DNA of 32,000 nucleotides from Candidatus Methanoperedens sp. Lineage in GTDB: Archaea; Halobacteriota; Methanosarcinia; Methanosarcinales; Methanoperedenaceae. The position numbers and the translations under genes are program-made. The DNA is taken from NCBI GenBank assembly GCA_027460535.1, contig JAPZAR010000009.1, positions 30,001-62,000 on the forward strand. The letters are read 5' to 3'. The notes under the pieces are model-generated. The model made no database searches and was not told the DNA's origin. It worked only from the letters and a program-made list of their open reading frames with translations. This document shows positions 8,128 through 26,868 of this stretch, in pieces. Every line of letters starts with the position of its first letter. Within the stretch, counting starts at the first letter, position 1.

Positions 8128-9627
8128 TCATCCTTTGAAAAGCCATTTCAGACTTTCCACATCTTTCATGATCTTTTCCAGTATTTCACTCTTGCCAAAT
8201 CCTGCCAGGAACATTCTTACGTCTTCACCATCCAGCAGCCTGAAACTGAACAGGATCACAGTATATGCAGCAAAACCAGCAAGAAGGTCCAGAAATGTCA
8301 ACAACTTCGTGCCACTGGGAAACATGAAGATAATCGCTCCAAACAAGATAAAAGCCAGAAGGATTTTTAAAGTTTTTGTCAACTCAAATTCAAGAAATCC
8401 GCATTTTAAATATACTCCCGTAAGTCCAAGGAGACCGGCTGCGCAGGCTATCGTGGTGGAAGCTGCTGCGCCAATGATGCCGTATCTTGGCACCAGGAAA
8501 AACAGGGCGATCACATCAACAGCTATGGAGAGCATGAGGATTATCGCAGGTACCCTTGGGCGATGCATGGCCTGAAAAATGCCTACAAGCGCGGTTATGA
8601 CTGTAAAGAAAGCCATCCCGACAGCCAGTATACCCAATGCGCCGGACGCAGCGGCATAGGTGGGAGGGAAAACCAGTGATATCATGGAAGAAGGAATCAC
8701 AAAAAGGGCTATGCAGACAGGACATATCATCAGGACGGTATATTTCAGGGTTTTGTTGGAATAGTTGCTGTTGGTGGATGAATACCTTGAGATATAGGGG
8801 AACATGGCACCCATCAGGGCCCCGGCTGCGAAGACAGGAAGCTCGGCAAGGATGAGGGCGCTGCGGTAATAGCCCGTGAGGGTATCCGAGAGAACCTTTT
8901 CGCTCAGGAACTTCACCCCGAGTATATCAAGGTTCATGAGCAGGGTCATAAAAAAAGTGCCGACGAACAATGGGAATGCAAATGAGTAAATCCTCCTGCT
9001 TTCCCATCCGCCCGTCTTCCAGAACTTAAAATCCCGGGTAAAGATAAGCGATAGCAAAAGCCCTGCTGCAGTGCTGGCGATAAGCCCGGAAAATGCCCCG
9101 AAAGCTCCATAACCCAATAAAACAAGAAGAACTGCGAAAACCAGTTTGGTAGCGACTGTGGTTATACTGACCAACCCGAACTTTTTGAACCGGAACATCC
9201 CCTGGAGCGCACTTGTATAGACCCCTCCCACCGCTGAAATAATAAGTGCGATGATGATGAACAATACAAAAGGCCTGTATGTGCTGTCAAGACGTATTAG
9301 CCCGGATGCGTATAAACCATAGAATAAGAAAGATACGGGCAAAGCGATACCAAGGTTCCCCACAAGCGAGCTTTTAAAAACCCTGTGTTTTACGTCGTCT
9401 CCGATACCTTCGGATAAGAATTTCGCTACAGCCAATGGAAAAGCCGAACTAACGAATAATGAAAGGATGGTAAGAAAAGATATTGCCACACCGAGTATAC
9501 CGTATTGCTGGGGTGTCAGCAGCCATCCCATGACTATGTTATACGTATAGTTGAGGAATGCTCCGATTGCAAAGACAATCAGCATCAGCAGAGTGTCTTT
9601 TGAAGGATTTGCCAAACCAGATATCAC
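8128..9627 (-). CDS. Oligosaccharide/polysaccharide flippase, MOP superfamily (Wzx / AglR-like)
   Basis: 499 aa, hydrophobic throughout (about 12-14 TM). The N-terminus (NIVMGWLLTPQQYGILGVAISFLTIL) resembles polysaccharide-biosynthesis-protein flippases. The track start is GTG (9627-9625). Confidence 0.75.
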   Translation of the reverse strand: MISGLANPSKDTLLMLIVFAIGAFLNYTYNIVMGWLLTPQQYGILGVAISFLTILSLFVSSAFPLAVAKFLSEGIGDDVKHRVFKSSLVGNLGIALPVSFLFYGLYASGLIRLDSTYRPFVLFIIIALIISAVGGVYTSALQGMFRFKKFGLVSITTVATKLVFAVLLVLLGYGAFGAFSGLIASTAAGLLLSLIFTRDFKFWKTGGWESRRIYSFAFPLFVGTFFMTLLMNLDILGVKFLSEKVLSDTLTGYYRSALILAELPVFAAGALMGAMFPYISRYSSTNSNYSNKTLKYTVLMICPVCIALFVIPSSMISLVFPPTYAAASGALGILAVGMAFFTVITALVGIFQAMHRPRVPAIILMLSIAVDVIALFFLVPRYGIIGAAASTTIACAAGLLGLTGVYLKCGFLEFELTKTLKILLAFILFGAIIFMFPSGTKLLTFLDLLAGFAAYTVILFSFRLLDGEDVRMFLAGFGKSEILEKIMKDVESLKWLFKG

Positions 9628-10798: not shown

Positions 10799-11480
10799 GT
10801 GGCTCCGTACAGAGAGCGCAGCCACAATTCCTATCAAGGAGCATCATCAACTGCGGGTACAGTGCATACGAAACTACCCTGGACGGAATGACCTCCCTTG
10901 CTGAGGGCTTATACTCGCCTCTCAGTCTCTTTTTTCAAAGAACTTGCCAATAATAATAATTTACCACGACATGAAAAATTCATAAATAAGATTTAGGTTT
11001 AAATCAGACATATGGTTTTATAAAAAAAAGGAATATACAGGGTATAGCATGAATTATTCAGATGAAATAAAGAAAATATCATTAAATGTATTCTTATTTT
11101 TATCAGCCATTTCTTTATTTCTTTATATCTACAAAGGGACAAACCCATACGCTTTAGAAGGATTGGAAGAAAGGATGCTGGCGGCATCCCGGGTGATGTG
11201 GACAATACCTTCCTTTTACCTGAACGTTCGATCGTCAGAGATACATTATATCCTCCATTTTTTATTGTTGCAACTACATCTTGCATAAATATTATTTTAA
11301 AATTATTAATTCTTATAAAAGTGTCTGTTTTATTATTTTCTGCTATTTTCTAATGGTTAGAGGCATTTATATAATATAATTGTGACCTTTTTCAACCACA
11401 TTATAAGATATATTTTGATATATTAATATCAAAAAAAATAATTAATGAAATAATCAAAAAAATAGCTTTCTTATCTGATT

Positions 11481-14400
11481 TCATAATAAATCATTTTTCT
11501 TAGCTTTATTTCTTCTCCAATTCCAAATACAATAACCTACAACGGAAATAAATGTAATTCCAGAAATGACAAGTCCAATATAAAAGTAAGACTGTGGTTT
11601 GAAGTAAAGTACTACCGTGAAGTTTTCACCCATGCTGAGTTCTTGCGAATCAATATACCAAGAATTAGCGTAACCATTTGCCATGAAATGATTTTCATCT
11701 GGCAAGGATTTCTTAAATAAATAAGATACATCACTTGGAGTAAATTTCATATCATGTTTAGCTTCTTTCACTTTTGTATTTTCGTAGCTTTTAATTATAT
11801 CATTAGGTTCAGAGTTTTTATCTTCAATGTAAGCTTTCCACTGAGGGTCATATGACTCTGAAAATACTAAGACAAATGGTTTGGATGTGTTAACATGGAC
11901 TTTGTATTTTGTGGGATTAATTTCTTGGAATGTTATATCAAATTTATTATTTTGGTTTGTATGAAATACATCACTTATATTTGAATATTTATCAGGGTTA
12001 TCAAATGAACAGAAATTCAACTCCTTATTGCTTTGAGCTACCAACAATGTTACAGTTTTATTGACCAAATGGTTTATTTGAATTATTACTTTTTGATTTG
12101 CGGGAATTATGGCTGGGTAAGTCACTTCTTTTGTGGTCATTCCCATCCAACCAGTTTCCCAAAATATTCCATTGACGTCAGATGCCGGTTTTCCATCTGC
12201 ATATATGCCATTTATTTGTAGAGGTTCTGACCCATTTCTTATATAGATATGTGTTGAATTTATTGAGAACCACATAGGTGGAGTCCACCACGATGGGAAT
12301 ATATAGGGACTGTCCTTTATGGATGAAATAACAAACATATCGGGATCAACTTTACTTTTTACATTGATAATCCCTTTTTTCCCAATATATGATCTGGCAG
12401 CATATTTATCCGCCATCATAGTCCAATCAATTGGTTTATCTATTCCGTTATACACTGGAATAACGATTCTCTGCTCGGACGAATTGCATGTTCGGTATTT
12501 AGAAATGTTCAGTACAAAATTATTCTGCTCTTTAAGAATCTCTGAAAAGAAAAAAACTGATTGGGGACTAAAATCATTATCCGATACTAAGGGAATTAAT
12601 GACTCAATACTTCCGTTGATATATATGGGGCCTGTGGTTGCATAAATATGGGGAACAAAATAATCATTTCTGTAGAAATCCCACTTTCCAAATGTTTTTT
12701 CTAGATGAATTCCTTTTTGAAAACTCAATCTTGATTCTATGAATTCAGGAGAATCAACATCTCCATAAAAATCGTATCTGAAATCATTACGCTGCAATAA
12801 ATACCTAACATTTAGTAACCCAAGAATTTTTGCTGTATTAGGAGTTAAGTTATTATAAATAGCATTGATACTTAACCGATGCATATTATCAATCGGACGA
12901 GGCTGTATATAACCTTCTCCATAGGATCTGAAAAGCATTCCCTTATTATTAAATAATTGATTCGAAATATCTCCTACGCCACCAAATCCCCAATCATATA
13001 CATTTGTCCTATCATCAGGAAGTAAGATTATTTTGAATTCCTCTTCATTGGAATTCATCCATTCTGATGCTTCAAAAATATATTGGGGAAAGTTAATATG
13101 ATAACCTAAATCAAATTTCTGGTGAAAACCAACATCGCCTTCAGAACTTGGAAACATATCGCCAAATACAAGAGGATAAGTATAGATTATATTTGAAAGA
13201 AGAATCAATCCTATGAATAAGATTGGAAAATTTATTTTGATTTTTAGCAATGAAAATTTTATATCATAATTACCGCTATGTTTCTGTAAATATTCATAAA
13301 TCTTGCTGCATGCAACGCCAATCAAGAATGAATATCCCAAAGCGATGAGAATTCCAAATTTCTGCCATGGTGCTCGATATATCCAGAATCCGGGTATATT
13401 TTCAAACATCCAAGAGTATAGCTCTCCAAAAGGGGGATGAATTCCTTTCCCTAGAAAGAGAGCTATGACAGTTGTAAAGGTGAAAAATATAACATAACGG
13501 TTTCTTGAAAATAAGACTGCAGAAAAAGCTAAAATAGGTATGAAAAAACTAAAAGCAATCAATATAGCATCTGTTTGATAAGATTGAAAATAAGGATTAT
13601 AAAGTTCACCACCCCACGAATCAAACCAAAAAACCTGCCCAAACTGTCTGAATATGTTTAAAAATCCATTATATTTGCTAGTATATTCCAATAAATTAGT
13701 GGAACTGTACACTTCCATAGCCTTAGAAGTTGAGGTTAAATCAGAGTCTAATACGAAATTTCCAATAGGAATTATCCAAAACATAGCTATTAAAAAGAAA
13801 ATTAAGAAAAATAATGCTGAGAATCTAATGCTATGAAAAATGTTCTCTTTATCCTTTCTTATGATTAATTTAGATAGATAAAAAATAAAAAATAATATTA
13901 ACATAAGAAACAAAGCTCCTAACATAGGGGGTTGAAACCCTGTGCCAGAAGCAATTATAGAGAAAATACAGATGGGCATAGCAGCTTGTTTATACGATAT
14001 TCTTTCTTCTAAACCTCCTATAAACAATCCCAACAATGAAGGTATAATTACAACACCCGTAAGTTCGCCTATTTTTGCCATTTCCCATGCATAAACTTGA
14101 TAGAAATTAAACATATAAAAAATAACAGCAGTTATTCGCATTATTCTTTCTTTGATTTCTCTGTGATTAATAAGCTGTGACATGAGAAAATACATTGAAA
14201 GTCCTGAGAGGGTGAACCAAAAAATAAATGTTAATTTTTCTGTGGTGATTAAATCGAATCCCAATATATTATGAAATAAAGCTTGCAAACTGGTAAAAAA
14301 TTCAGCTGATATATCTGATGAGCGATCAGTCCCACCAAGAATACCTGTATTCCAAACGTATAAACGTTGTATAAAGCGTTGAAGAGGATTAAATGGGAAA

Positions 14401-14516
14401 TCCACATCAGCACTTGCTATTAAATAGCCTTTGAACCAAAGCAAAGGAGTTAATCCTAGCAGAATTATTAACATTAGTTCATTATTTTCGGCCCAAAATA
14501 CTTTAATCGATTTCAT
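11481..14516 (-). CDS. Giant polytopic membrane protein, GT-C-fold glycosyltransferase-like (AftD/DUF3367-like)
   Basis: 1011 aa: ~450 aa of TM helices, a ~520-aa soluble domain and a final TM (FYIGLVISGITFISVVGYCIW). The first loop ADVDFPFNPLQRFIQRLYVWNTGILGG resembles the acidic first-loop motif of AftD-type GT-C enzymes. The C-terminal FVLVFSESYDPQWKAYIED...ANGYANSWYI...VVLYFKPQ pattern is typical of that family and of YfhO. This is recollection, not a search. Confidence 0.6.
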   Translation of the reverse strand: MKSIKVFWAENNELMLIILLGLTPLLWFKGYLIASADVDFPFNPLQRFIQRLYVWNTGILGGTDRSSDISAEFFTSLQALFHNILGFDLITTEKLTFIFWFTLSGLSMYFLMSQLINHREIKERIMRITAVIFYMFNFYQVYAWEMAKIGELTGVVIIPSLLGLFIGGLEERISYKQAAMPICIFSIIASGTGFQPPMLGALFLMLILFFIFYLSKLIIRKDKENIFHSIRFSALFFLIFFLIAMFWIIPIGNFVLDSDLTSTSKAMEVYSSTNLLEYTSKYNGFLNIFRQFGQVFWFDSWGGELYNPYFQSYQTDAILIAFSFFIPILAFSAVLFSRNRYVIFFTFTTVIALFLGKGIHPPFGELYSWMFENIPGFWIYRAPWQKFGILIALGYSFLIGVACSKIYEYLQKHSGNYDIKFSLLKIKINFPILFIGLILLSNIIYTYPLVFGDMFPSSEGDVGFHQKFDLGYHINFPQYIFEASEWMNSNEEEFKIILLPDDRTNVYDWGFGGVGDISNQLFNNKGMLFRSYGEGYIQPRPIDNMHRLSINAIYNNLTPNTAKILGLLNVRYLLQRNDFRYDFYGDVDSPEFIESRLSFQKGIHLEKTFGKWDFYRNDYFVPHIYATTGPIYINGSIESLIPLVSDNDFSPQSVFFFSEILKEQNNFVLNISKYRTCNSSEQRIVIPVYNGIDKPIDWTMMADKYAARSYIGKKGIINVKSKVDPDMFVISSIKDSPYIFPSWWTPPMWFSINSTHIYIRNGSEPLQINGIYADGKPASDVNGIFWETGWMGMTTKEVTYPAIIPANQKVIIQINHLVNKTVTLLVAQSNKELNFCSFDNPDKYSNISDVFHTNQNNKFDITFQEINPTKYKVHVNTSKPFVLVFSESYDPQWKAYIEDKNSEPNDIIKSYENTKVKEAKHDMKFTPSDVSYLFKKSLPDENHFMANGYANSWYIDSQELSMGENFTVVLYFKPQSYFYIGLVISGITFISVVGYCIWNWRRNKAKKNDLL

Positions 14517-14527
14517 GGTTTTTTCCC

Positions 14528-15322
14528 TTAGAGTATGCAGCCGTTCTTTATCTTTTTAGCAATAATTACAATACGACTTCCTCTCATTAGCTTCGGCAAA
14601 CATAACACTAAAATTTTATATAAACTATTTTTGATTTCGTACAGAATCAATCTGCTAATTGATAGTGATTTAACATTATTCATCTGGAAATGATTTGTAT
14701 CAATAAATAGTATGTTATAATTTAATTTTTTAAGAATATACATATAAGTATTTACGGAATGAGCCACCTCATTTGGGGTAGCTAGTCTATGATTGATAAT
14801 ATAATCTTTTCCAAATATAGATGTCAAATATACTCTCATCAAACCAAACAGTTTATTTACTGGGTTAGATCCATTAGGTTCTATAATTATGAGAAACCCA
14901 TCATGTTTGATCCATTCACTCAAATTATAAAAAACCTTGTCGATTAATGGAAAATGATGCAGAATAAAAGGACATAATATTAATTCAAATTGATCTTTGT
15001 CAAATATATTTTCATCTTCCAAATCATTAGTTATTGCATGATAATTCTGGGTTGGAGGTTCATTAGCTAGTTTAACCATTTCTGGAGTGATATCTACTCC
15101 TGTTATCTTCAAATTTGGATTTAGATTTAGAAGAAACTTTCCAAATATTCCAATACCACAACCAGCTTCTAAAACTTTATATTTTTTATATTTAATTTTG
15201 GGAATATATTTAATGAGAACTTTCCTGAGATAATCAAAGTATTCTTTATCATATTCTGTTGGTTCTTCGAGAACGCCCCTAAAAAATTCTCGTTCATAAG
15301 ATTTATTTTGTAATGTCTTCAT
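14528..15322 (-). CDS. Class I SAM-dependent methyltransferase
   Basis: Motif I VLEAGCGIGIFG, followed by ITGVDITPEMV and LILCPFILHHFP (Methyltransf_11/25-like). Its stop lies 11 nt upstream of the GT-C gene start. Confidence 0.85.
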   Translation of the reverse strand: MKTLQNKSYEREFFRGVLEEPTEYDKEYFDYLRKVLIKYIPKIKYKKYKVLEAGCGIGIFGKFLLNLNPNLKITGVDITPEMVKLANEPPTQNYHAITNDLEDENIFDKDQFELILCPFILHHFPLIDKVFYNLSEWIKHDGFLIIIEPNGSNPVNKLFGLMRVYLTSIFGKDYIINHRLATPNEVAHSVNTYMYILKKLNYNILFIDTNHFQMNNVKSLSISRLILYEIKNSLYKILVLCLPKLMRGSRIVIIAKKIKNGCIL

Positions 15323-15456
15323 TTAATATCAACCTAGTAGTAAAATTATGTTTTATCGTTTGATATTCGAGTAATTTTTTCTGAAAATTTGAAATTGAGC
15401 TAAGATATATTTATCTAATTATGAAATTATTAATATTTCTGAAGCAATATATTCGA

Positions 15457-16650
15457 TTAGTGTCCTTTCATATTCATTGGATTTTCATTTTTGATCAATT
15501 TGTTGAATATCTCAAACTCTTTGTTTGATATTAGATCCCAATCATATTGTTGAATACCATTAAACCCTTTTAATCCAAGTTCAGCGCATAAATCCGTATC
15601 ATAAAGAAGATCATTCACAATTACTGCAAATTTAGATATATCGAATAATTCTACCGTTTTTAGTCCATCTTTGAAAATACGATATGTCGGTAAATCATAT
15701 GCAACAACCGGTAATTTGCAGGCCATCGCTTCACAAACTGCAATTCCCCATCCTTCTTCATGGCTGGGAGTAATAAATATCCTACTCTGCTTCATTATTT
15801 CAATACATTCCTTATGGCTTTTAGCTCCGGCGAGTTCTATAGATGTCATTAATCCCTCCCCCTTGATAGACGCTTTTAGCTCATTTTCATATTCTTTAAG
15901 TCCTCCACCTACGACAATTAATTTGGCATTTATATTACTCTTGACAACTCCTTTCCATATGGGAACTATATCGTGCAAACCCTTACTTGGACGTAGTCCA
16001 CCTACAAAACAAGCATCATAAATTATATCATTTTTTGTATTATTTATATCATCTATAAATTTTAGATTCACCCCATTAGAGATCATTTCAACAGAATATT
16101 TTGAATGAAAAAGTTTAGCTATTTTTTCCCCCATTGCAGAATCGTATACAAAGACTTTATCGGCATTATTTTTAATCAACCTATAACTTAGTTTTTGCAT
16201 TATTGAAGATAAAAAGCTAACAAAAAAATCAATGGGTTTATTTTGATTAATCCCTACTAAATGATGTGTCATAGCAATCCATTTTGTGCGGTTAATTTTA
16301 TGGTATATTAATGCTGGGATAATATCACATATATAATCTGAATCAGTATAACATATATCACATTTTGGTAAACGCGGAACAATGAAAAATGAAAATATTG
16401 TAGAGATGAAATATGCCTCGATTCGATCATAGATTCCAGATTCTATCTTCTTGAAAATAGACGCTGGAAGAATATGGTATATCACTTCTAATCCCATAGA
16501 TCGGCAAGCTTTGAATCCACCAATGGTAGTAAGAAAATGAATTTCACATCCCATTCTTTGCAACCTTTTTGCGATTTCTATAGTTCTAATTAAACTTCCC
16601 CCTACCCCACCCGATAAACCATTTCCGTTAGCGATATATAATATTTTCAT
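15457..16650 (-). CDS. Glycosyltransferase, GT-B fold, family 4-like
   Basis: The track starts at GTG 16659; ATG 16650 (MKILYIANGNG) is more typical. The EX7E motif EGWGIAVCE is followed by AMACKLPVVAYD. N-terminal GGVGGSLIR. Confidence 0.85.
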   Translation of the reverse strand: MKILYIANGNGLSGGVGGSLIRTIEIAKRLQRMGCEIHFLTTIGGFKACRSMGLEVIYHILPASIFKKIESGIYDRIEAYFISTIFSFFIVPRLPKCDICYTDSDYICDIIPALIYHKINRTKWIAMTHHLVGINQNKPIDFFVSFLSSIMQKLSYRLIKNNADKVFVYDSAMGEKIAKLFHSKYSVEMISNGVNLKFIDDINNTKNDIIYDACFVGGLRPSKGLHDIVPIWKGVVKSNINAKLIVVGGGLKEYENELKASIKGEGLMTSIELAGAKSHKECIEIMKQSRIFITPSHEEGWGIAVCEAMACKLPVVAYDLPTYRIFKDGLKTVELFDISKFAVIVNDLLYDTDLCAELGLKGFNGIQQYDWDLISNKEFEIFNKLIKNENPMNMKGH

Positions 16651-16727
16651 TTTAACCACTTGAATATAGTTTTACAAAACGCCTTCTAATAATCATTACT
16701 TCTCTATTCTATGGAAATTGCAAATAT

Positions 16728-18158
16728 TTATTTAGAATATGTAGTTTCCCTTAATTTTTCAAATACCATACATAATTGTAGCCCATTTTTGGCATCTTTT
16801 TGTTTCAAATCGATTTTTTCTAAATTCCACCATAAAGAAGAGTCTGGTTTGTTAATCTCCGGAATAAATCTCGATAAAACAATTTGAATTATTTTAACTA
16901 GATGCCCACTATAGAATATATTTTTGATATCAAAACCATGATTTTTAAATTTTATGCCTAATTGTTCCTCACTATAGTGTCTTAAATGTCCTATTTTCTT
17001 GTCATGAAGATAATATGGCAGCCAAAAAATAGGAAGAATTCTTTTATATGCATTAGGGACTATGATTACAATTTTTGCTTGAATCTTTGATACCCTGGCC
17101 ATATCCTCTATGGCTTTACAATCATTCGGCAGATGCTCTAAAACTGCTATTGAGCTAATTTTAGAAAACACTTTTTTTTTAAATGGCAGATATTCTGCTG
17201 AACCCACAATAAAATGACATACTTCATCGTTATTCAATATTTGTTCTGCAAAATTTTTTGCTTTTTTAACACCTTGCAGTGAGATATCGATACCCACTGA
17301 TACACAACCTCTTTGCGCAGCTTCTATAACAGTATAGCCAGAACCACCAATCCCGATATCAAGATAGTAACTTGAGTTTTCTCCATTCATATCTAGCATG
17401 GCGCATATCCTCCGAAGGTAACTGAGTCTCCAATTCTCCAGATGATATTTTTTATAATTTTTGTATTCGTTATCAAAATATTTTTTTTGAAAATTATATT
17501 GATTATTGATATTAATATTAGCAGAAGAATTAAATCTGTTCTTTATAAAAATCATATTGTAAGATAGATAATTCTTTAAGACAGGTATAATTTCCAAAAT
17601 ATTCTCAAATTTTTGTATTATGTTTAATAAGAATATATTTCTCAATGGATACACATGTGCTTCAAAAGATATAATTTTATAATTTTCAAAATAACCGCCG
17701 ACCAAATTTCTAAATTTATCCTTTGAAAAATGCTTATGACCTCTAAGTAAAGTTAAGTGAATATAATTCAGTACGTGATATCTATTAGGTTCTATTAAAA
17801 CAATAACCCCAGTTTTCTTTGTAACGCGACTCATTTCCTTCAGTGCATCATTGTAATGCAAAACATGATGTAAGGCATCTTTCTCAATAACAACATCATA
17901 TATATTATTGCGAAATGGGAGATTGGATGCATCGGCTATCAAAAAATCTAAATTACAATTTTTTATCTTATTCCAATCATCAAACTTTTTAATGTCAATA
18001 CAGATTAGTTTTGATTTTTCTGATAATATCTGATCGAGATTTCCTTTACCACATCCAATATCTAATATCAAAAAGTTGTCTTTCAGTTCAATATTCAAAT
18101 TATATACTATCTTATTATAATAACATTCTTCCGAATATTTGAACATTTTTTTCCGCAT
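16728..18158 (-). CDS. Fused double class I SAM-methyltransferase (two MTase domains in one polypeptide)
   Basis: Domain 1: ILDIGCGKGNL ... ADASNLPF ... KDALHHV. Domain 2: YLDIGIGGSGYTVIEAAQRG ... GIDIS ... GSAEYLPF ... AVLEHLP. Its ATG directly abuts the TAA of the upstream rSAM gene (18159/18158). Confidence 0.8.
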   Translation of the reverse strand: MRKKMFKYSEECYYNKIVYNLNIELKDNFLILDIGCGKGNLDQILSEKSKLICIDIKKFDDWNKIKNCNLDFLIADASNLPFRNNIYDVVIEKDALHHVLHYNDALKEMSRVTKKTGVIVLIEPNRYHVLNYIHLTLLRGHKHFSKDKFRNLVGGYFENYKIISFEAHVYPLRNIFLLNIIQKFENILEIIPVLKNYLSYNMIFIKNRFNSSANININNQYNFQKKYFDNEYKNYKKYHLENWRLSYLRRICAMLDMNGENSSYYLDIGIGGSGYTVIEAAQRGCVSVGIDISLQGVKKAKNFAEQILNNDEVCHFIVGSAEYLPFKKKVFSKISSIAVLEHLPNDCKAIEDMARVSKIQAKIVIIVPNAYKRILPIFWLPYYLHDKKIGHLRHYSEEQLGIKFKNHGFDIKNIFYSGHLVKIIQIVLSRFIPEINKPDSSLWWNLEKIDLKQKDAKNGLQLCMVFEKLRETTYSK

Positions 18159-19565
18159 TTATATTCTAAGCAATGCTCTTAACTTTACCATGGAATTTTT
18201 GGCGCCTTGCGACTTCAAAAGGTGAAGAGTATTCAATATATTTTTTGAGCTAGTATATACTTTCAAATATGCCCTCTTTTGCAGAGCTACCAACTTTTTT
18301 TGATCTACACCCGCCAATTCCAGCGTTTTACCAGTTTGTTTGCTGTAATCGGACCAATTTTCAGATAATAATCGCAAACCTCCTTCACCCGTCCTCGCCA
18401 TGTCAGCAATTCTTGTTCCTGGGAAGGGGACCAGTATTGCAAAATTTGGATTGAATGCATCGAGTTGTGAGGCAAAATTAATAGTCTCCTTAATAGTCTT
18501 TTCAGTTTCATAAGGTAATCCGATGATAAAACATGCTCCTGCTTTGATACCGGCTTCTTTAGTCTTTTTAACAGTTTCCTGAATTAATCTTAGGTTCGTC
18601 TTTTTTCCAATCTTATTTAATATTTCCTCGTTCCCACTTTCAACCCCATATCCTATCACTGTACAACCTGCCTCTTTCATCTTCTTCAATAAGTCAACGT
18701 CATTCATCAAGTCAACTCTTCCACCTGTTTCCCATGTGATCCTCCTATGAAGTCCTCTTTTTATCAGTTCATCACATGTTTCTACTGCAATTCTCTTATT
18801 GATGCCAAAACTTCCCTCTACAAAATGTACCTTTGTTGCCCCAAAAAAATTTAAATTGCTTTCTATTTCATCAACTATTCTTTTGGCTGTTTTAAATCGG
18901 ACACTTCCCCCAAAAGTTCTATAACAAAAAATACAGTCAAAAGGGCATCCCCTTGCACCTTCTACGGGTAACTCCAAGCCTTCAATATGCTCTCCTGTTG
19001 GACTAAATTTTCTATATTTTTCAAGATTAAAAAGATTCCATGCTGGATATGGTAATTCATTTATATCTTTTATTAGTTCCCTTTTTTCGGTTCTGATGAT
19101 TTTATTATAGTTTTTAAATATTATACCTTTGACACAATCGAATTTTTTATTTGATTCAATTGCTTCAACAAGTTCCAAGCATGTCTTTTCTCCTTCTCCA
19201 ATAATACCAAAATCAAAAAAATTAAACTCTTTCATGGTTCTCTCGGGAATTGCGGAGATATGCGGTCCACCGATTATGCAATAAGTATTAGGAAGAACTC
19301 TTTTGATTTCACGGCACATAATATCTGCGTCAATTATCTCCTCTGTATAAGCATTAATCCCAATCACATCGGGATCTAATCCTTTTAGTGTTTCGCAGAG
19401 TTCAACCAGCGAATAGTTTTCGATAACTGGATCAATTATTTTGACATTATAATTCTCTTGCAAAACCGCTGCGATACTTGCCAAACCCACTCTCGGAAAT
19501 GTAGAACTACTTTGAATCTTATCGGATATTGTGTCTCTCAGAGGATTCATAAAAATAATATTCAT
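18159..19565 (-). CDS. B12-binding-domain radical SAM enzyme (COG1032-type)
   Basis: Canonical cluster motif GCPFDCIFC (CX3CX2C). The N-terminal Rossmann-like B12-binding segment reads DVIGINAYT ... IIGGPHISA. FIIGLPYET motif present. The track starts at ATG 19586, but ATG 19565 has GGAGG (19575-19571) at 5-nt spacing and lies 1 nt after the epimerase stop, so it is preferred. Confidence 0.85.
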   Translation of the reverse strand: MNIIFMNPLRDTISDKIQSSSTFPRVGLASIAAVLQENYNVKIIDPVIENYSLVELCETLKGLDPDVIGINAYTEEIIDADIMCREIKRVLPNTYCIIGGPHISAIPERTMKEFNFFDFGIIGEGEKTCLELVEAIESNKKFDCVKGIIFKNYNKIIRTEKRELIKDINELPYPAWNLFNLEKYRKFSPTGEHIEGLELPVEGARGCPFDCIFCYRTFGGSVRFKTAKRIVDEIESNLNFFGATKVHFVEGSFGINKRIAVETCDELIKRGLHRRITWETGGRVDLMNDVDLLKKMKEAGCTVIGYGVESGNEEILNKIGKKTNLRLIQETVKKTKEAGIKAGACFIIGLPYETEKTIKETINFASQLDAFNPNFAILVPFPGTRIADMARTGEGGLRLLSENWSDYSKQTGKTLELAGVDQKKLVALQKRAYLKVYTSSKNILNTLHLLKSQGAKNSMVKLRALLRI

Positions 19566-19566
19566 T

Positions 19567-20598
19567 TTAGCCTCCTTTCTTGACATCTTCTACCCATCCC
19601 AAAAGCCGCTTAATTCCCTCCCTATGCCCCACCTCTGGCGCCCATTTCAGCACTTCTCTAGCCTTCGAAATATCCGAAACGTAAACCTTCTGATCACTGG
19701 GGCGCCAGTCCGCAAAATTTATTTTCGAGCGATGGCCGGTCAATTCCTCTAGAAGATCCAGAAGCTCCAGTAACGATATAGTATTCTCTTGTCCACCACC
19801 AATATTCAAAACTGCGCTGCTGTTTAGATTCAAGAAGGCATCATATGCTTTTACTAGATCTTCCACGTAAAGCACATCCCTCACCTGCTTTCCATCTCCA
19901 TAAATCGTGATAGGTTTCCGAAATATTGTTGAAATTGCGAACCACGCAACCCAGCCTTGATCTTCGACGCCAAACTGCCTTGTGCCATAAATACAGCTCA
20001 TTCTGAAGACGCCTGAATTAAGCCCATAAAGATGCCCATAATCTTGACAGTAAATATCACCAGTTAACTTTGAGCAACCATATGGTGTATGTTCACACCG
20101 ATCTATCGCAAAAGACTCTGAAATCCCATTCTTAAATTTATCCTCAAATACATACCGTTTTTCTTTTTCCATTACTTTAATCGCATTTACATTGTCGCCA
20201 TATACCTTGTTCGTAGAACAATATACAACTGCCTCAACATCAGAAGTCCTTGCAGCCTCCATTACATTAAATGTGCCTAGAGCATTTACCTCAAAATCCG
20301 TTTTCGGATCAACTACCGATGTAGTAACTGCAGTCTGCGCAGCAGTATGTATGATCGCATCCGCACTCTTTGCAGCTTCTTTTAGTTCTTCTAAGTCTCT
20401 AATGTCTCCTTTGATTAATTTCACATTTTTAATATTCTTTAAGTAATTCCAGTTATATGCGGTATCGATAGAATCCTTTCTAAGAAGTTCTCCCCTAGAA
20501 AGGTTATCATAGCACACAACCTCATTTCCTTTTCTTGCAAAATATTCTGCAGCATGGCTGCCAACAAAACCTGCTCCACCTGTTATTAGTATTTTCAT
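19567..20598 (-). CDS. NAD-dependent sugar-nucleotide epimerase/dehydratase (extended SDR; CDP-paratose 2-epimerase-like subfamily)
   Basis: GGAGFVGSH Rossmann motif and catalytic YGCSK (YxxxK). Blocks STNKVYGD, DQGWVAWF, GDGKQVRDVLYVEDL, NIGGGQENTISLLEL and RPSDQKVYVSDI match my recollection of Salmonella RfbE. The subfamily call is less certain than the SDR call. Confidence 0.85.
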   Translation of the reverse strand: MKILITGGAGFVGSHAAEYFARKGNEVVCYDNLSRGELLRKDSIDTAYNWNYLKNIKNVKLIKGDIRDLEELKEAAKSADAIIHTAAQTAVTTSVVDPKTDFEVNALGTFNVMEAARTSDVEAVVYCSTNKVYGDNVNAIKVMEKEKRYVFEDKFKNGISESFAIDRCEHTPYGCSKLTGDIYCQDYGHLYGLNSGVFRMSCIYGTRQFGVEDQGWVAWFAISTIFRKPITIYGDGKQVRDVLYVEDLVKAYDAFLNLNSSAVLNIGGGQENTISLLELLDLLEELTGHRSKINFADWRPSDQKVYVSDISKAREVLKWAPEVGHREGIKRLLGWVEDVKKGG

Positions 20599-20652
20599 CG
20601 TATCACATTTATTTAATTTTTATTCATATATTATTAATTAATTGCCCACAAT

Positions 20653-21798
20653 TTAAACGTCATTTAAATTTCGCATGAAAATTTCGTTATAATCAAATTG
20701 TTTTATGTATTTGGTTGCATTTATAGAATATTCTTTTAGAATGTCTTCATTTTCTATCAATTCTATTATTGCGCTTTTTATACTTTCCACATTATTTCTA
20801 ATTATTTTCCCACAATGGCATCGCTCAATTTCATGGGCATTATAAGGTATGTCAGTTAATAGAACAGGCAATCCCATCGCAAAATATGTCTTTAACTTCG
20901 TGGGATCGGCATAGTATGTAAAGGAGGCTTTTCCATTATCATACATAGCAACAGCGATATGTGATTTTCCTAATATTTTATTTAATTCTTTGGAATCGTA
21001 TATCGGTCCCCTGAATTCAACATATTTATCAATCTCCAAATGATATGCCAATTTTTTTAATTCCGTCTCATATTCGCCATTTCCAATTATAATAAAATTA
21101 AAGTCTCTAATTTTGTTGGTTATTTCAGGTATAGCCTTTAAAACTAGTTGAACTCCTTGTTTTTCCAGTAAATGCCCGACAAAAATCAATGTTTTTCTTC
21201 CATACTTTTTATTTATTTGTGGCAGATCTTCTAGCCAAACTCCTATCGGAACAACTTTCTGTTTATTATATTTTTCAGTTGGCATATTGTTGTATTTTCC
21301 CCTACCTTCAGCCATTCTTGGGGATAGATTCCATGTCTGATCACAATATCTTACACATATTTTGTCTATAGAATGATATATTTTATTCAAAAATTTATTA
21401 TTAAATCTGATAGGTGCATAGTCTATGGTGTAAAAAACAACTTTTTCACATTTACCAGCCCATTTAAGTGACAACGCACTCAAAGCATTAAAGCCTCCAC
21501 ATCCTACAATTAGATCGAATTTGTTTTTATTGAAAAAAATTCCAAAAAAAGAATAGAAGAAATCTTTAATGTATATGATAGTGTCTGGAAATAATTTGTA
21601 ATCTAAGCATTCGATAATATTCTCTTTGTTCTTATTAAATTCAGTGAAAGTTGTCTTTCTATCCGGCAAAGAAGAAAAACTATGTTGTACCAGTAACACG
21701 TACCGAGTATTGTTTTTCTTCAAAAATCTGTAAAGATCTTGACCAGCGCCGGTGAAGAGATGATGGGTTATAATAGCATACTTTTTATCAAATAACAT
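20653..21798 (-). CDS. Glycosyltransferase, GT-B fold (GT4-like, divergent)
   Basis: C-terminal domain pattern FVGHLLEKQGVQLVLKAIPEI ... IIIGNGEYETELKKLA ... VEFRGPIY ... TYFAMGLPVLLTD. The first Glu of the usual EX7E is not obvious. GAGGT SD 6 nt upstream; only 3 nt separate it from the upstream GT2 stop. Confidence 0.7.
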   Translation of the reverse strand: MLFDKKYAIITHHLFTGAGQDLYRFLKKNNTRYVLLVQHSFSSLPDRKTTFTEFNKNKENIIECLDYKLFPDTIIYIKDFFYSFFGIFFNKNKFDLIVGCGGFNALSALSLKWAGKCEKVVFYTIDYAPIRFNNKFLNKIYHSIDKICVRYCDQTWNLSPRMAEGRGKYNNMPTEKYNKQKVVPIGVWLEDLPQINKKYGRKTLIFVGHLLEKQGVQLVLKAIPEITNKIRDFNFIIIGNGEYETELKKLAYHLEIDKYVEFRGPIYDSKELNKILGKSHIAVAMYDNGKASFTYYADPTKLKTYFAMGLPVLLTDIPYNAHEIERCHCGKIIRNNVESIKSAIIELIENEDILKEYSINATKYIKQFDYNEIFMRNLNDV

Positions 21799-22988: not shown

Positions 22989-23348
22989 CTAGCTGAGTAA
23001 CGGTTTGATCGTGTTTTCCTGAAGATTGCAATATCTCTTAAGCGACGCCAGGAACATTTTTTCCTGTGCAAATCCTGTTGACCAGTAGGGGTCCTCAAAA
23101 CCCTCTTTGCTGCTTAATTCATTGATTATGAGCCTTACCTGGGCATCCGAGATGCGAAAACTCCTGCGAATTTTTGAGAGTATGTTTATATAATGCCCGA
23201 TTTTCATCGGCATGTCGTCTGATATGTTTTTGACTGCTCCGCAATGTATGCAGTATGGATGCGATTTAAGGCCGTATACCTCCTCCCTTGAAATGTGAGG
23301 CAGCCAGACTTTCTCTTTGCTTCCACAGCTTTTATGTTCGCATTTCAT
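22989..23348 (-). CDS. Small Zn-ribbon protein of unknown function
   Basis: 119 aa. Four Cys arranged C3-x4-C8 ... C33-x2-C36 (KCEHKSCG ... YCIHCG), then a ~70-aa predicted helical C-terminal part. AGAGGA SD about 8 nt upstream; 27 nt downstream of the rSAM stop. Confidence 0.6.
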   Translation of the reverse strand: MKCEHKSCGSKEKVWLPHISREEVYGLKSHPYCIHCGAVKNISDDMPMKIGHYINILSKIRRSFRISDAQVRLIINELSSKEGFEDPYWSTGFAQEKMFLASLKRYCNLQENTIKPLLS

Positions 23349-23375: not shown

Positions 23376-24842
23376 TTAAGAATCACACTTTTCCTTATTC
23401 GAGAAATCAGTCAGATGTCCTGTGACTGCACTCACGCCCCTTTTTATAAATTTCAGGTCATCTATATTCCTGATGGACAGCAATCTTCGCAGGATGTAAC
23501 CAGGTGTGATAAATACCTTGTATAGTTCCTGTGTTAACTCTTTAATCTCCTGTTCGGTTATCGGACACTTCATAACTGCCTCACGCATATCGAATCTATC
23601 CCAGTCTTCGGTTACAAGCCAGCCATTTTCCTTGCATTCCCTGTAAAGAGGAGTTCCTGGATAGGGGATAACGATGGTTGCCTGAAGCGTATCGGCCCAT
23701 CCTTTTTTGAAAATCTCCTGGGCAAGTTTAACAGTCTGCAGAGCATCTGTTTTCGTCTCCCATGGATACCCGAGCATCACTGTTAAATGCGGGTCAAGCC
23801 CTGCCTTTTTAGCCATCATGCATGCATTTGGAATATCTTCCACTTTTGTACCTTTATTAATTCTGTCAAGCGTACCCTGGTTCGCAGACTCAACACCGTA
23901 GAGTATGAACCTGAATCCAGCATTTGCCATCAGGTCATATTCTTCCTGCATGAGGGCATTCACGCGCATGTTACAGTGGATATTTATTTTTTTATTATAT
24001 CCTCTCTCTATCATGCCAGTGCAGAAATCATGAAGCCAATTACCCACTGGAAAAGTACCTGTATCATCCATTATCTCCTTCACTTTATATTTCTCAATAA
24101 GCATACCTATTTCATCAAGCAGTTTTTCCGGAGTTCTTGCCCTGAAGGATGGATAAGTAGTAGTCCATGAGCAGAAAGTGCATTTTGCATGCCAGCAGTC
24201 TCTTCCGACCATGGTATAGGTGCCTGGTGTCCTTTTATAATTGCCATTTTTTTCGCTGTAGAGCTTCCATTTTGTCAGATCACGGTCAATGAAGGGCAGT
24301 TCATTCAGATCATGGTCAAGCTTGAATAATCCTGAATTCTTTATGGTTCCATCTTTCCTGTACCATATCCCTGGTTCTAACTTCACACCTTTTGCTAGAT
24401 GATCTGCAAGATTTAGCAGGAGGAAATCATAATCCCCCCCTGTGAGTATGAAATCGGCCTCACAGTTCTCCATAGATTCTTGCGGGAGCGCAGTCGCATG
24501 ATCTCCTGCGAGAACAATCCTTGTATCAGGACTCTTGCGCTTTATATCATCGATAATATTCCAATGTCTTTTGACCACTGGAGTTTTTGTCTCTATGGCG
24601 ATTACATCCGGTTCTTGCATTAGAATATCATTGCGCCACTTCTCATAAGTCTTATTTTCCGCGATCCCGTCGTCCCAGATGACCTGATAGCCGCTTCCTT
24701 TCAATAGAGTAGCAGCATAAGCAGGAACCATGGGGTAGATATAAGTAGGATTATTAAACCATTGGAACTGCCTGTTTTGGGCCAGCAATGGGGTACCCTT
24801 TGGGCTTTCAATCGGAGGATATGATATTGAAATTTTCATCAT
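23376..24842 (-). CDS. B12-binding-domain radical SAM enzyme with non-canonical CX4CX2C motif
   Basis: N-terminal Rossmann-like segment (PDVIAIETKT ... IVLAGDHATA). Cluster motif GRDCWHAKCTFC, which is C-x4-C-x2-C. VMLGYPWET motif present. The start overlaps the upstream GT2 stop (TAATG at 24842). Confidence 0.85.
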   Translation of the reverse strand: MMKISISYPPIESPKGTPLLAQNRQFQWFNNPTYIYPMVPAYAATLLKGSGYQVIWDDGIAENKTYEKWRNDILMQEPDVIAIETKTPVVKRHWNIIDDIKRKSPDTRIVLAGDHATALPQESMENCEADFILTGGDYDFLLLNLADHLAKGVKLEPGIWYRKDGTIKNSGLFKLDHDLNELPFIDRDLTKWKLYSEKNGNYKRTPGTYTMVGRDCWHAKCTFCSWTTTYPSFRARTPEKLLDEIGMLIEKYKVKEIMDDTGTFPVGNWLHDFCTGMIERGYNKKINIHCNMRVNALMQEEYDLMANAGFRFILYGVESANQGTLDRINKGTKVEDIPNACMMAKKAGLDPHLTVMLGYPWETKTDALQTVKLAQEIFKKGWADTLQATIVIPYPGTPLYRECKENGWLVTEDWDRFDMREAVMKCPITEQEIKELTQELYKVFITPGYILRRLLSIRNIDDLKFIKRGVSAVTGHLTDFSNKEKCDS

Positions 24843-25801
24843 TATCTCTCCAGTTCCCCAACTGTCAGGCCGCGAATAAAATATACACCATATGCAATGT
24901 GTGTTGCAATTGTTCCTGTAAATACCAGAGGTAAATATCGCAGATCTTTTCCATAAGCAGTTGCCATTAAAGAAACTGCAAACGTTGCAAACAGGTATAA
25001 AAACAGTATAGAAATATAGGCAAGAAAAATGGAATTATTCATTAACGGGAAAGCAATGCCAAATATTAAGAAAAGGACAAACATTGAAGGGATGAAATAG
25101 TTCACACGGAGGGACGTTTCAGGGAATTTTTTCGCAAAAAAGCCTCGATGGAGGCCGAACCTGGATACCTGCGCCAGATGCTTCGCAAATAATGGTCTTC
25201 GATGATGGAAGACGATTACCTCAGGGGATTCGATCATCTTTTTCCCGAGCTTCTTTATTCCAAGACATATCAACGTATCCTCCCCAGGCCAGTATTTCTC
25301 ATCCCATCCGGCAATCTCTTCGAGAACTGATCTCCTGGCAATGAAATTACATGAATGAATATCGTCGGATTCGCGGGATTTCCCGGTATTGTACCTGTCA
25401 GCAAGGCCACCTACCATGAAAGAAGAAAGAACATATCCCCCTGCCTTCTGTAGAATAGTATCCCTCGGTGGCGTCACTCCCGGGCCTCCCACCGCTGCGA
25501 TATCGGGGCAAGCGAAATATTTAACTGCATTAATGAGCCAGTCCTTTCTCGGATACGCATCGGAATCGATAAAAGCCAGAAATTCGCCAGTTGAGTTTTT
25601 GAGTCCGATATTTCTCTTTCGGCCAGGGGAAACTCCACCCGTTGAAATTATTTTTACATCGTCAATTGAATTCGAACCGTTGTCTGGTAAGACGATTATT
25701 TCAAAGTTTTCATAATCGAGCTCCATACATTCGTGGATACACTCTAAGGTGAGGGCATCTACATCGTTACAAGGGATTATTATGGAAATTTCAATATTCA
25801 T
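24842..25801 (-). CDS. Glycosyltransferase family 2 with three C-terminal TM helices
   Basis: ISIIIPCND, DxD motif DSDAYP, and conserved GGPG / GEDT blocks. C-terminal TMs: YFIPSMFVLFLIFGIAFPLM, IFLAYISILFLYLFATFAVSLMA, LPLVFTGTIATHIAYGVYFI. GGAGA SD 6 nt upstream. Confidence 0.85.
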   Translation of the reverse strand: MNIEISIIIPCNDVDALTLECIHECMELDYENFEIIVLPDNGSNSIDDVKIISTGGVSPGRKRNIGLKNSTGEFLAFIDSDAYPRKDWLINAVKYFACPDIAAVGGPGVTPPRDTILQKAGGYVLSSFMVGGLADRYNTGKSRESDDIHSCNFIARRSVLEEIAGWDEKYWPGEDTLICLGIKKLGKKMIESPEVIVFHHRRPLFAKHLAQVSRFGLHRGFFAKKFPETSLRVNYFIPSMFVLFLIFGIAFPLMNNSIFLAYISILFLYLFATFAVSLMATAYGKDLRYLPLVFTGTIATHIAYGVYFIRGLTVGELER

Positions 25802-25929: not shown

Positions 25930-26868
25930 TCATTTCTCGAATTTTCTTGCAAGGGATTCGTAAGGTAAGGTTAAAATAACTATTACAAAACTCAAAGCGA
26001 ATAGGGCAATCAAACTTCTTGATTCAATTCCTGGTAATAAGAAGGGATCAATAAACTGTTTGTAAAGGTATATCCCGGATATTGAAACCATGAGCATGAT
26101 AGTTGAGTCTCGAATAATCCTTGAATAGTACTGCAAGAAACCGAATCGGCCTGCTACTGCAACTGTATCGAGAAAGATGTTGGTGATAACCTTAATATTT
26201 ATCCTTCCCCACCCCTTTCTTGTGAATTTCAAAATTATGGGCGCTTCCACGATCTTATAACCGAAACGCCTGGCATACGCCAATAACTCCACATCAAAGG
26301 CGTACCTCTTCACGCGCATCAGCGGAAAGACCTTTTGCAGGACTTCCCTCCTCATTAATTTGAAGCCAGCCTGAGTATCCCGGATTTCCAATTGCAGAAG
26401 CAATCGGAGTATGATATTGTACATCTTACTTAAGAATTTTCTAATAAGTGGATAGTATTCTATGGTGGAGAGGGGATGTCTCTTACTTCCCACAACGATA
26501 TCTGCATGGTATTTTTTCATGTACTCTAATAGAATGCTTATCTGCTTTGGATCAAGTTCCATGTCTGCATCAAGAAAAGTGACGAGGTCTCTTGTTGCAA
26601 ATTTCAATCCGTATCTTATGGCATTTCCTTTGCCCATGTTGTGCTTAACTTGCACGACATTGACATTGTCAAATCTTTTTGAAGTGGCTTCCTCATAAGT
26701 ATTGTCAGTGGATCCATCATCTACAACTATTATTTCATGATCCACTCCGAGCTCTGTGAAGAGATCTTTCACATGCATTATTGTTTTAAGAATGTGTCCT
26801 TCTTCGTTGTAAGCCGGAATAATTACCGACAGCTTATCATTTTTCATATTTGACTTTCCACTTTTCAT
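25930..26868 (-). CDS. Glycosyltransferase family 2, polyprenyl(dolichyl)-phosphate hexose synthase-like (DPM1/GtrB/AglJ-type architecture)
   Basis: LSVIIPAYNEE, VVDDGSTDNT, GKGNAIRYG and the DxD motif FLDADMELDP, followed by two C-terminal TMs (IMLMVSISGIYLY, LIALFALSFVIVILTL). The sugar specificity cannot be read from sequence. Confidence 0.8.
   Translation of the reverse strand: MKSGKSNMKNDKLSVIIPAYNEEGHILKTIMHVKDLFTELGVDHEIIVVDDGSTDNTYEEATSKRFDNVNVVQVKHNMGKGNAIRYGLKFATRDLVTFLDADMELDPKQISILLEYMKKYHADIVVGSKRHPLSTIEYYPLIRKFLSKMYNIILRLLLQLEIRDTQAGFKLMRREVLQKVFPLMRVKRYAFDVELLAYARRFGYKIVEAPIILKFTRKGWGRINIKVITNIFLDTVAVAGRFGFLQYYSRIIRDSTIMLMVSISGIYLYKQFIDPFLLPGIESRSLIALFALSFVIVILTLPYESLARKFEK

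Follow-up and report, generated by a model that had tools for sequence, protein, structure and literature searches.

A 32,000-nucleotide stretch of a Candidatus Methanoperedens sp. contig (JAPZAR010000009.1, positions 30,001 to 62,000; hereafter the window, with positions counted from its first letter) encodes on its minus strand a radical S-adenosylmethionine (SAM) enzyme with a B12-binding domain, here called rSAM1 (468 aa, 18159..19565). As judged from sequence and from a structural model, rSAM1 has the fold and most of the sequence motifs of cobalamin-dependent (class B) radical SAM enzymes, and its sequence relatives form an uncharacterised family tied to glycan gene clusters. We propose, with a confidence that we would put at even, that rSAM1 is an accessory cobalamin-type tailoring enzyme in a low-GC surface-glycan operon ending in an AftD-like GT-C glycosyltransferase gene, where it would most likely C-methylate a sugar, more probably one belonging to a lipid-linked glycan. 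A first-pass annotation of the same DNA had read rSAM1, the epimerase gene before it and the double methyltransferase gene after it as an enzyme chain making one unusual nucleotide sugar. That interpretation is partly supported: the enzyme types assigned to the three genes stand, but the genes are not conserved together as one pathway unit.

Domain architecture, fold and cobalamin motifs of rSAM1

rSAM1 matches the Pfam families PF02310 (B12-binding; 65.9 bits against a cut-off of 32.1) and PF04055 (Radical_SAM; 92.4 bits), and PF02310 was present in 120 of 120 rSAM1 homologues among the matches listed. The putative cobalamin-binding domain of Rossmann type, as delimited by the Pfam stretch (residues 28-139; 19149..19484, minus strand), holds G99-G100 and the GEGE segment at 123-126, while the [4Fe-4S] motif CxxxCxxC is made up of C207, C211 and C214 in the loop RGCPFDCIFC-YR (18924..18947, minus strand). 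In the AlphaFold2 (AF2) model (predicted local distance difference test score, pLDDT, of 91.6), strands and helices alternate in the Rossmann manner over residues 2-137 and are followed by a TIM barrel. Foldseek matches of this model comprise TsrM, AprD4, MgmA, CysS, OxsB and TokK with E-values of 1e-19 to 1e-24. Foldseek was rejected as a discriminator of cobalamin binding, since true cobalamin binders and AprD4, which binds no cobalamin (PMC12931638), score alike. The rSAM1 family profile does tell them apart, as it aligns the N domains of OxsB, TsrM, CysS, TokK and MgmA, whereas for AprD4 only the radical SAM core aligns and the N domain scores -0.5.

The cobalamin motifs of class B enzymes were defined by Bridwell-Rabb and co-workers as a GG on β4 and a GE at α5, which serve the tail of base-off cobalamin, together with a G-x-S/T-x-X loop between β3 and α3 that supplies the lower-face residue (PMC9204698). 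Conservation of these motifs was read from the columns of an alignment of 33 rSAM1 family sequences. The GG motif is G99 (33/33) and G100 (32/33), and the GE motif corresponds to G123-E124-G125-E126, where E124, G125 and E126 are each found in 33/33. H102 and T74 are likewise invariant (33/33), as are C207, C211, C214 and R205, the residue before the first Cys and the equivalent of R204 in TokK, and two positions past the last Cys, 28/33 sequences have R or K. A second radical SAM protein of the window, rSAM2, is without the GG and GE motifs, a contrast that shows their retention in rSAM1 to be specific. The first-pass annotation had made its proposal depend on a cobalamin-binding fold or residues in a predicted structure, and the model of rSAM1 offers candidates for both.

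The downstream cobalamin motif is less regular. It reads G69-I-N71-A-Y73-T74 in rSAM1 and G69-x-N/P/T-x-Y/F followed by the invariant T74 in the family, with P, T or N at position 71 and Y or F at position 73 in 22/33 sequences; most close relatives are without the canonical Ser/Thr. An aromatic residue is conserved at the predicted lower-axial position, and the candidates in rSAM1 are Y73 and E75, the alignments to TsrM and TokK being two positions apart. Placement of rSAM1 by profile, which had been suggested earlier, gave a divided result: class B features were recovered, but rSAM1 falls below every curated NCBIfam whole-protein cut-off (BchE, HpnJ, ApyD, PhpK, MgmA, BzaD, HpnR and AprD4 were compared), with scores and cut-offs of 186.7/481 for BchE, 154.5/750 for ApyD, 151.1/578 for HpnJ, 117.9/360 for MgmA and 82.2/500 for AprD4.

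A surface-glycan operon with a low-GC island

rSAM1 lies within a one-strand surface-glycan operon of ~15 kb, running from 26868 down to 11481 in the order Dpm1-like glycosyltransferase family 2 (GT2) protein, GT2, rSAM2, 119-aa open reading frame (ORF), GT2, glycosyltransferase family 4 (GT4) protein, SDR343 (an extended short-chain dehydrogenase/reductase, SDR), rSAM1, double methyltransferase, GT4, methyltransferase and a 1011-aa GT-C protein. A 340-aa ORF, Wzx (8128-9627) and a second GT-C-like protein follow downstream on the same strand. The first cluster gene (25930..26868, minus strand) encodes a GT2 of Dpm1/ArnC/AglJ type that resembles polyprenyl-phosphate sugar synthases (Glycos_transf_2, 125 bits); its NCBIfam matches (PgfS, PpgS, ArnC-type, AglJ) are all below cut-off.

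The GT4 and GT-C neighbours named in the first-pass annotation were recovered. The first GT4 (381 aa; 20653..21798, minus strand) matches Glycos_transf_1 with 74 bits and the second (400 aa, or 397 aa from ATG 16650; 15457..16659, minus strand) with 87.6 bits. Orthologues of the second GT4 occupy the same position in the related loci L003 and L026, and in L028 the orthologue is fused to a methyltransferase resembling the C-terminal half of the double methyltransferase (C-type). A third class I methyltransferase gene, following the second GT4, encodes a 264-aa product (14528..15322, minus strand; Methyltransf_12, _31 and _25 matches). The last operon gene (11481..14516, minus strand) encodes the 1011-aa AftD-like membrane glycosyltransferase of GT-C type with a beta-rich external domain, as identified by its AF2 model (pLDDT 82.4). 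The best Foldseek match of the model is AftD (6W98, E 3e-15), followed by STT3, AglB, AftA, PglB and ArnT. PF11847 is sub-threshold in this protein and is carried by many of its 78 homologues. Runs of T7 and T8 lie past the stop codon of the gene.

The part of the operon from the first GT4 to the GT-C gene, together with an AT-rich spacer of 643 nt, forms a low-GC island (10838-21798) with 28-41% GC, whereas genes beyond its borders have 42-50%. The related contigs L003 and L026 contain the same low-GC module, and the island has the look of a strain-variable glycan cassette that is exchanged horizontally. No tRNA genes were found anywhere in the window. A separate insertion of SDR343 and rSAM1 was also considered and was discarded, as it finds no support in the per-gene GC and L003 shows the same pattern.

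Genomic context of rSAM1 orthologues

Homologue look-ups and two collection scans yielded 33 non-redundant rSAM1 orthologue loci. The scans were built from 16 closer sequences and two peptide patterns and are biased towards relatives of at least ~36% identity; neighbours were typed by phmmer against the window proteins and a few added queries, so that families without a query could be missed. The orthologues come from Bathyarchaeia, Patescibacteria/CPR3, Chloroflexota, Thermodesulfobacteriota, Nitrospirae, Pelotomaculum, Spirochaetia and Omnitrophota. All 33 loci are glycan clusters, in line with the sugar context that had been expected of homologues. A distinct, conserved rSAM1 family sits in surface-glycan operons of uncultured archaea and candidate phyla radiation (CPR) bacteria, including the methane oxidisers of the ANME-2d group.

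Within 6 kb of rSAM1, a GT4 is found in 19/33 loci, a GT2 in 18/33 and an extended SDR in 17/33 (a TyvE-like SDR of at least 200 bits in 8/33). Dpm1-like GT2 proteins and GT-C-like or other large membrane proteins each occur in 13/33, class I methyltransferases in 11/33, further B12-rSAM paralogues in 9/33, DegT in 7/33 and nucleotidyltransferases in 4/33. The gene directly upstream, visible in ~30 loci, is most commonly a GT4 (~14 loci), the others being a nucleotide-sugar enzyme (7), a membrane protein (3), rSAM2 (2) or a methyltransferase (2). GT4 proteins of the same type as the 381-aa enzyme stand directly 5' of rSAM1 in L003, L015, L018, L044 and L045, and this position is taken by other GT4 types in L007-L012, L019, L022 and L030. 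A cassette of overlapping genes in the order Dpm1-like GT2, GT4, rSAM1 and GT2 recurs in L008-L012 and L030, which belong to Patescibacteria, CPR3, Chloroflexota and Bathyarchaeia.

On the other hand, contiguity of SDR, rSAM1 and methyltransferase was observed in the window's own contig only. The relative with 84% rSAM1 identity (L003) has the order SDR, GT4, rSAM1, double methyltransferase, methyltransferase, GT4 and GT-C. L026 and L028 contain a module of SDR, GT4, two methyltransferases, GT4 and membrane protein (GT-C) without rSAM1; in these, either the two methyltransferase genes are distinct and overlap, or the C-type one forms a fusion with GT4. Because such a near-identical module exists without it, rSAM1 is regarded as accessory to the GT4/methyltransferase/GT-C module.

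Some loci are rich in radical SAM genes. L005 encodes a 672-aa fusion of GT2, Radical_SAM and SPASM (13115-15133), and its cluster also holds orthologues of rSAM1 and rSAM2, DegT, an ATP-grasp protein, a HAD hydrolase and a GFO/IDH/MocA oxidoreductase. Elsewhere, GT4-rSAM1 is directly followed by a series of three or four B12-rSAM paralogues, adjacent or nearly so, in contigs of Thermodesulfobacteriota and Nitrospirae and from metagenomes (L015 9911-14299; L018 9983-16971; L044 5986-10295; L045 2621-8645), which suggests several radical modifications of one glycan.

Gene junctions and translation signals

The junctions described in the first-pass annotation were all confirmed in the sequence. 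On the minus strand, the SDR343 ORF ends in GTC AAG AAA GGA GGC TAA (V K K G G and stop), the TAA lying at 19569-19567, and the single base 19566 separates it from the rSAM1 ATG at 19565-19563. A GGAGG motif resembling a Shine-Dalgarno (SD) sequence for rSAM1 (19575-19571, minus strand) is placed inside the last SDR343 codons, 5 nt 5' of ATG 19565. The rSAM1 TAA (18161-18159) abuts the methyltransferase ATG (18158-18156) with a gap of 0 nt. An alternative in-frame rSAM1 ATG at 19586 would overlap SDR343 by 20 nt; the start at 19565 is backed by the N-termini of orthologues (MKIVFVN, MGIVLTT, MKVCLMN) and by the deposited 468-aa product. Gene callers differ on the methyltransferase start (472 aa from ATG 18146; also 456 aa), and a double-methyltransferase orthologue of 76% identity starts at the equivalent of 18158, 2 nt past its rSAM stop.

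Among the operon genes, only rSAM1 has a complete GGAGG at SD spacing. With 30 copies of GGAGG on the minus strand in 32 kb, such spacing is unlikely to arise by chance, and the L003 orthologue keeps an AGGAG equally far from its start although no SDR stands immediately upstream of it; the motif is therefore considered real. The methyltransferase gene has no SD-like motif before its start, and its translation probably depends on reinitiation. Close packing is seen elsewhere in the operon, with intergenic gaps of -1, 27, 92, 3, 54, 1, 0, 77, 134 and 11 nt, and rSAM1 orthologues in other loci are equally tight against whichever gene lies upstream. The tight spacing of the trio reflects operon packing and reinitiation, and is no mark of a dedicated three-enzyme nucleotide-sugar pathway.

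The TyvE-type epimerase and the double methyltransferase

SDR343 (343 aa; 19567..20598, minus strand; Pfam Epimerase 165.6 bits, domain call Epimerase/GDP_Man_Dehyd) aligns over its full length with TaTyvE (PDB 9RL0; 284 bits, 46% identity) and scores 249 bits against PDB 1ORR, which agrees with its earlier description as a CDP-paratose/tyvelose-2-epimerase-like enzyme. It retains GxxGxxG, the Thr-Tyr-Lys triad, the TNK segment with Asn125, YxxxK and equivalents of Gln205, Arg237 and Arg299. The segments aligned to TaTyvE residues are GGAGFVGS, STNKVYG, YGCSK, KQVRD and WRPSDQK, and the sole change among the residues compared is that the VAM segment of TaTyvE reads TAV in SDR343. TaTyvE interconverts CDP-glucose and CDP-mannose; the roles of its catalytic and binding residues, including the CDP-binding Arg237 and Arg299, have been described (PMC13098431). 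Going by these similarities, SDR343 is a homologue of CDP-tyvelose 2-epimerase (TyvE), of the NAD-dependent type, and probably epimerises nucleoside diphosphate (NDP)-hexoses at C2. Among the 23 window ORFs of at least 100 aa, none of the CDP-3,6-dideoxyhexose genes (cytidylyltransferase, CDP-glucose 4,6-dehydratase, E1/E3, paratose synthase) was found above the Pfam threshold, hence a CDP-glucose/mannose-like substrate, of the kind used by TaTyvE, is more likely.

The double class I SAM methyltransferase (476 aa; 16728..18158, minus strand) had been recognised as a two-domain protein, and both domains are intact. Two Methyltransf_11 stretches define an N domain (~17514-18158) and a C domain (~16728-17513), and motif I (D/E-x-G-x-G-x-G) and an acidic post-I residue are preserved in each, as LDIGCGKG then CIDIK in the former and LDIGIGGSG then GIDIS in the latter. 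The two halves are 24% identical to each other. In a search of 5.8 billion proteins only two full-length double methyltransferases were found; the other database matches are single-domain proteins with 50-56% identity to the C half (by phmmer mapping), some of which carry a Trm112-like domain. The adjacent, overlapping genes MT212 and MT299 in L026 match the two halves at 162 and 313 bits. These comparisons indicate that the double methyltransferase arose recently, and in a lineage-specific way, by fusion of two class I methyltransferases whose genes are separate but overlap in related clusters. Relatives of the C half are also fused to GT4 in four proteins, P0156, P0167, P0183 and P0185 (e.g. 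L028 5856-7835), and fusions of this kind tie methylation physically to glycosyl transfer.

Proposed role of rSAM1 and alternative explanations

In the scheme that we propose, the Dpm1-like GT2 and the GT4 proteins would build a sugar or oligosaccharide on a polyprenyl phosphate carrier at the cytoplasmic side, with SDR343 supplying a 2-epimerised donor, e.g. CDP-mannose. rSAM1 would take a hydrogen from an unactivated sugar carbon by means of the 5'-deoxyadenosyl radical and would most likely then pass a methyl group from methylcobalamin to that carbon, in a C-methylation of the GenK/GenD1 type. The three class I methyltransferase domains may O-methylate hydroxyl groups, after which Wzx would flip the product and the GT-C protein would transfer it outside the cell.

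The GT-C protein at the operon end implies a polyprenyl-linked donor, and as SAM-dependent enzymes must act in the cytoplasm, tailoring should occur on a nucleotide sugar or on a lipid-linked intermediate. The lipid-linked stage is favoured because of the GT4-rSAM1 linkage, the Dpm1-like cassette, the methyltransferase-GT4 fusions and the precedent of GenK and GenD1, class B sugar C-methylases that act on assembled glycosides, after glycosyl transfer, and not on nucleotide sugars (PMC4340712). C-methylation is considered the likeliest outcome on three grounds: no class B reaction is more common than methylation (abstract of PMC11659888), rSAM1 retains the cobalamin motifs, and its predicted lower-face residue is aromatic like that of radical methylases.

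Several observations weigh against this proposal. The best NCBIfam scores of rSAM1 belong to non-methylases (BchE 187/481, HpnJ 151/578), and the best PDB profile match of its core, at 146 bits, is AprD4, a sugar diol dehydratase. At Cys+2 it has an Arg, like the non-methylating OxsB (R323), in place of the Trp of TokK, and the canonical Ser/Thr of the downstream motif is Asn in rSAM1 and Pro in 14/33 relatives. A nucleotide-sugar enzyme (SDR, DegT or nucleotidyltransferase) lies directly upstream in the window, L005, L021 and L036-L039, which keeps a nucleotide sugar a conceivable substrate. The family has no biochemically characterised member, and some orthologues occur in Patescibacteria, which are usually unable to make cobalamin. 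Methanoperedens-like archaea, for their part, make cobamides. Extended to the whole family, the proposal is more tentative: it is possible, though we would stop short of calling it probable, that rSAM1 proteins form a widespread, uncharacterised, cobalamin-dependent family that C-methylates or otherwise radically remodels lipid-linked surface-glycan sugars in Methanoperedens, Bathyarchaeia, Patescibacteria/CPR, Chloroflexota, Nitrospirota and Thermodesulfobacteriota.

The nucleotide-sugar chain of the first-pass annotation, in which a single NDP-hexose is processed in turn by SDR343, rSAM1 and the double methyltransferase to give an epimerised, C-/O-methylated NDP-sugar for the GT4 and GT-C enzymes, is an unlikely alternative. 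It would account for the trio junctions of 1 nt and 0 nt, for the coupling of rSAM1 and double methyltransferase that is also seen in the 84% relative, and for the TyvE-like SDR found at most 6 kb away in 8/33 loci and directly upstream in L038 (637 bits); a sugar-1-phosphate nucleotidyltransferase directly upstream in L036 and L037 (11-nt gap) and DegT in L005 and L021 are also consistent with it. However, a GT4 stands between SDR and rSAM1 in the 84% relative, contiguity is confined to this contig, and the same module occurs without rSAM1. Neither a nucleotidyltransferase nor a CDP-glucose 4,6-dehydratase was found among the Pfam-scanned ORFs of the window. Sugar O-methylation usually follows glycosyl transfer, and the four C-type methyltransferase-GT4 fusions likewise point to methylation at or after transfer, as does, for C-methylation, the action of GenK and GenD1 on glycosides rather than NDP-sugars (PMC4340712).

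It is similarly doubtful that rSAM1 is a non-methylase acting on a sugar, by AprD4-like 1,2-diol dehydration with an SDR reducing the ketone, by ring contraction or carbocycle formation as in OxsB/HpnJ, or by epimerisation, with cobalamin optional. The AprD4 match of the core, the ranking of BchE, ApyD and HpnJ as best NCBIfam matches and the OxsB-like Arg at Cys+2 would fit such a role; AprD4 works with the NADPH reductase AprD3 (PMC5461906), and class B includes non-methylating members, while some lookalikes bind no cobalamin (PMC12931638). Against this, the N domain of AprD4 fails to align, in contrast to those of true cobalamin binders, conservation of GG and GEGE is complete or nearly so, and the AprD4 model NF033070 scores 82 against a cut-off of 500. 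SDR343, in turn, keeps epimerase-type TyvE residues and is no conserved partner of rSAM1, and the prevalence of methylation among class B reactions (abstract of PMC11659888) also speaks for a methylase.

Lipid-directed B12-rSAM enzymes are known in HpnP, HpnR and the glycerol dialkyl glycerol tetraether (GDGT) ring synthases. It is nevertheless very improbable that rSAM1 methylates or cyclises the polyprenyl/dolichyl carrier or a glycolipid anchor: a GT2 resembling polyprenyl-phosphate sugar synthases is linked in 13/33 loci, a CDP-alcohol phosphatidyltransferase gene overlaps the rSAM1 stop codon in L007, and rSAM1 has weak, sub-cut-off NCBIfam matches to HpnR and the ladderane lipid rSAM, but BchE and MgmA give stronger matches than these lipid-acting families, consistent linkage to lipid-biosynthesis genes is absent, and glycosyltransferases and sugar-modifying enzymes dominate every locus.

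Other genes of the operon and window

The rSAM2 gene (488 aa, 23376-24842) overlaps by one base the stop codon of a GT2 gene encoding 319 aa (GT2_319), the pair spanning 23376-25801 on the minus strand. This pair is kept in many loci (L005, L015, L017, L026, L039, L043) and has a counterpart of at least 90% identity in Ca. Methanoperedens; the 90%-identity cluster of rSAM2 holds a protein of Ca. Methanoperedens nitroreducens. rSAM2 is HpnJ-like (162 bits, sub-cut-off) with a Cx4Cx2C cluster motif, and it may remodel the sugar attached by GT2_319. Assignment of the pair as HpnI/HpnJ was unsupported, since GT2_319 has no HpnI match and its best match, MftF, is sub-cut-off at 90 bits. The 119-aa ORF after rSAM2 (22989-23348, minus strand) has no Pfam match and recurs in the glycan locus L038 (3386-3760, 191 bits); its N-terminus is rich in Cys and His, and it may be a small metal-binding partner.

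Towards the other end of the window, a 751-aa protein (1324-3579, plus strand) carries a PGF-CTERM archaeosortase signal and is likely a surface glycoprotein, possibly an acceptor of the locus glycan. The window also encodes an MfnA-like decarboxylase; together with the PGF-CTERM protein and the rSAM2 cluster, this identifies the host as a Methanoperedens-like archaeon.

Significance and comparison with known systems

To our knowledge, class B radical SAM enzymes that tailor sugars, e.g. GenK and GenD1, are known only from antibiotic pathways, and no study of a B12-rSAM enzyme in surface glycans was found in a literature search. If rSAM1 does remodel lipid-linked glycans, primary envelope glycan synthesis would gain its first assigned class B enzyme, and C-branched or chain-extended sugars would be predicted on the surface of methane-oxidising archaea. 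If envelope sugars are indeed C-methylated, this would account for the alkylation of unactivated sugar carbons in cell-surface glycans, provide a genetic marker for unusual sugars and make surface-glycan structure dependent on cobalamin. In practical terms, rSAM1 is a clear candidate for in vitro reconstitution with defined partners (GT4, Dpm1-like GT2, TyvE-like SDR).

Of the neighbouring enzymes, the 1011-aa protein shares with mycobacterial AftD a GT-C transmembrane fold and a large external beta-rich domain, although it is shorter and only ~11% identical. SDR343 compares with the CDP-tyvelose 2-epimerases TaTyvE from Thermodesulfatator atlanticus, to which it is 46% identical, and RfbE from Salmonella. 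Unlike in CDP-tyvelose pathways, its surroundings are without CDP-3,6-dideoxyhexose genes, and TAV replaces VAM.

An N-terminal five-stranded Rossmann domain and a TIM-barrel radical SAM domain are common to rSAM1 and to TsrM, TokK, CysS, OxsB and MgmA/QCMT. The Foldseek TM-scores of rSAM1 with TsrM, TokK, CysS, OxsB and MgmA are 0.67-0.76, and the GG, GE and Cys-loop motifs are shared, whereas identity to structurally characterised class B enzymes is 16-20% and rSAM1 is without the large C-terminal domains of TokK and CysS. At the lower-axial position the candidates for rSAM1 are Tyr/Phe73 or Glu75, where TokK has Trp76 and TsrM Arg69, and the Cys+2 residue of rSAM1 is Arg. AprD4/AprD3, which removes the C3' hydroxyl of an aminoglycoside, resembles the present case in having a sugar substrate and in the oxidoreductase gene next to rSAM1. 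It differs in that AprD4 is without cobalamin and its N domain is unaligned to the rSAM1 family, while SDR343 is of epimerase type and is no conserved neighbour.

A further parallel is the gentamicin gene set, which includes GT4-type glycosyltransferases as well. There, the B12-type radical SAM enzymes GenD1 and GenK occur, as here, among sugar-tailoring genes with an NAD(P)-dependent oxidoreductase and class I methyltransferases (PMC4340712). They work alongside GenD2, GenS2 and GenN, and the DegT and GFO/IDH/MocA genes present in some orthologue loci, such as L005, resemble GenS2 and GenD2. GenD1 is a protein of ~77 kDa with Cx4Cx2C (PMC4340712), in contrast to the 468 aa and CxxxCxxC of rSAM1; the two are likened here by enzyme type and gene set. 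The setting also differs, being an actinomycete antibiotic cluster for GenD1 and GenK, and an archaeal cell-surface glycan operon, with orthologues in CPR bacteria, for rSAM1.

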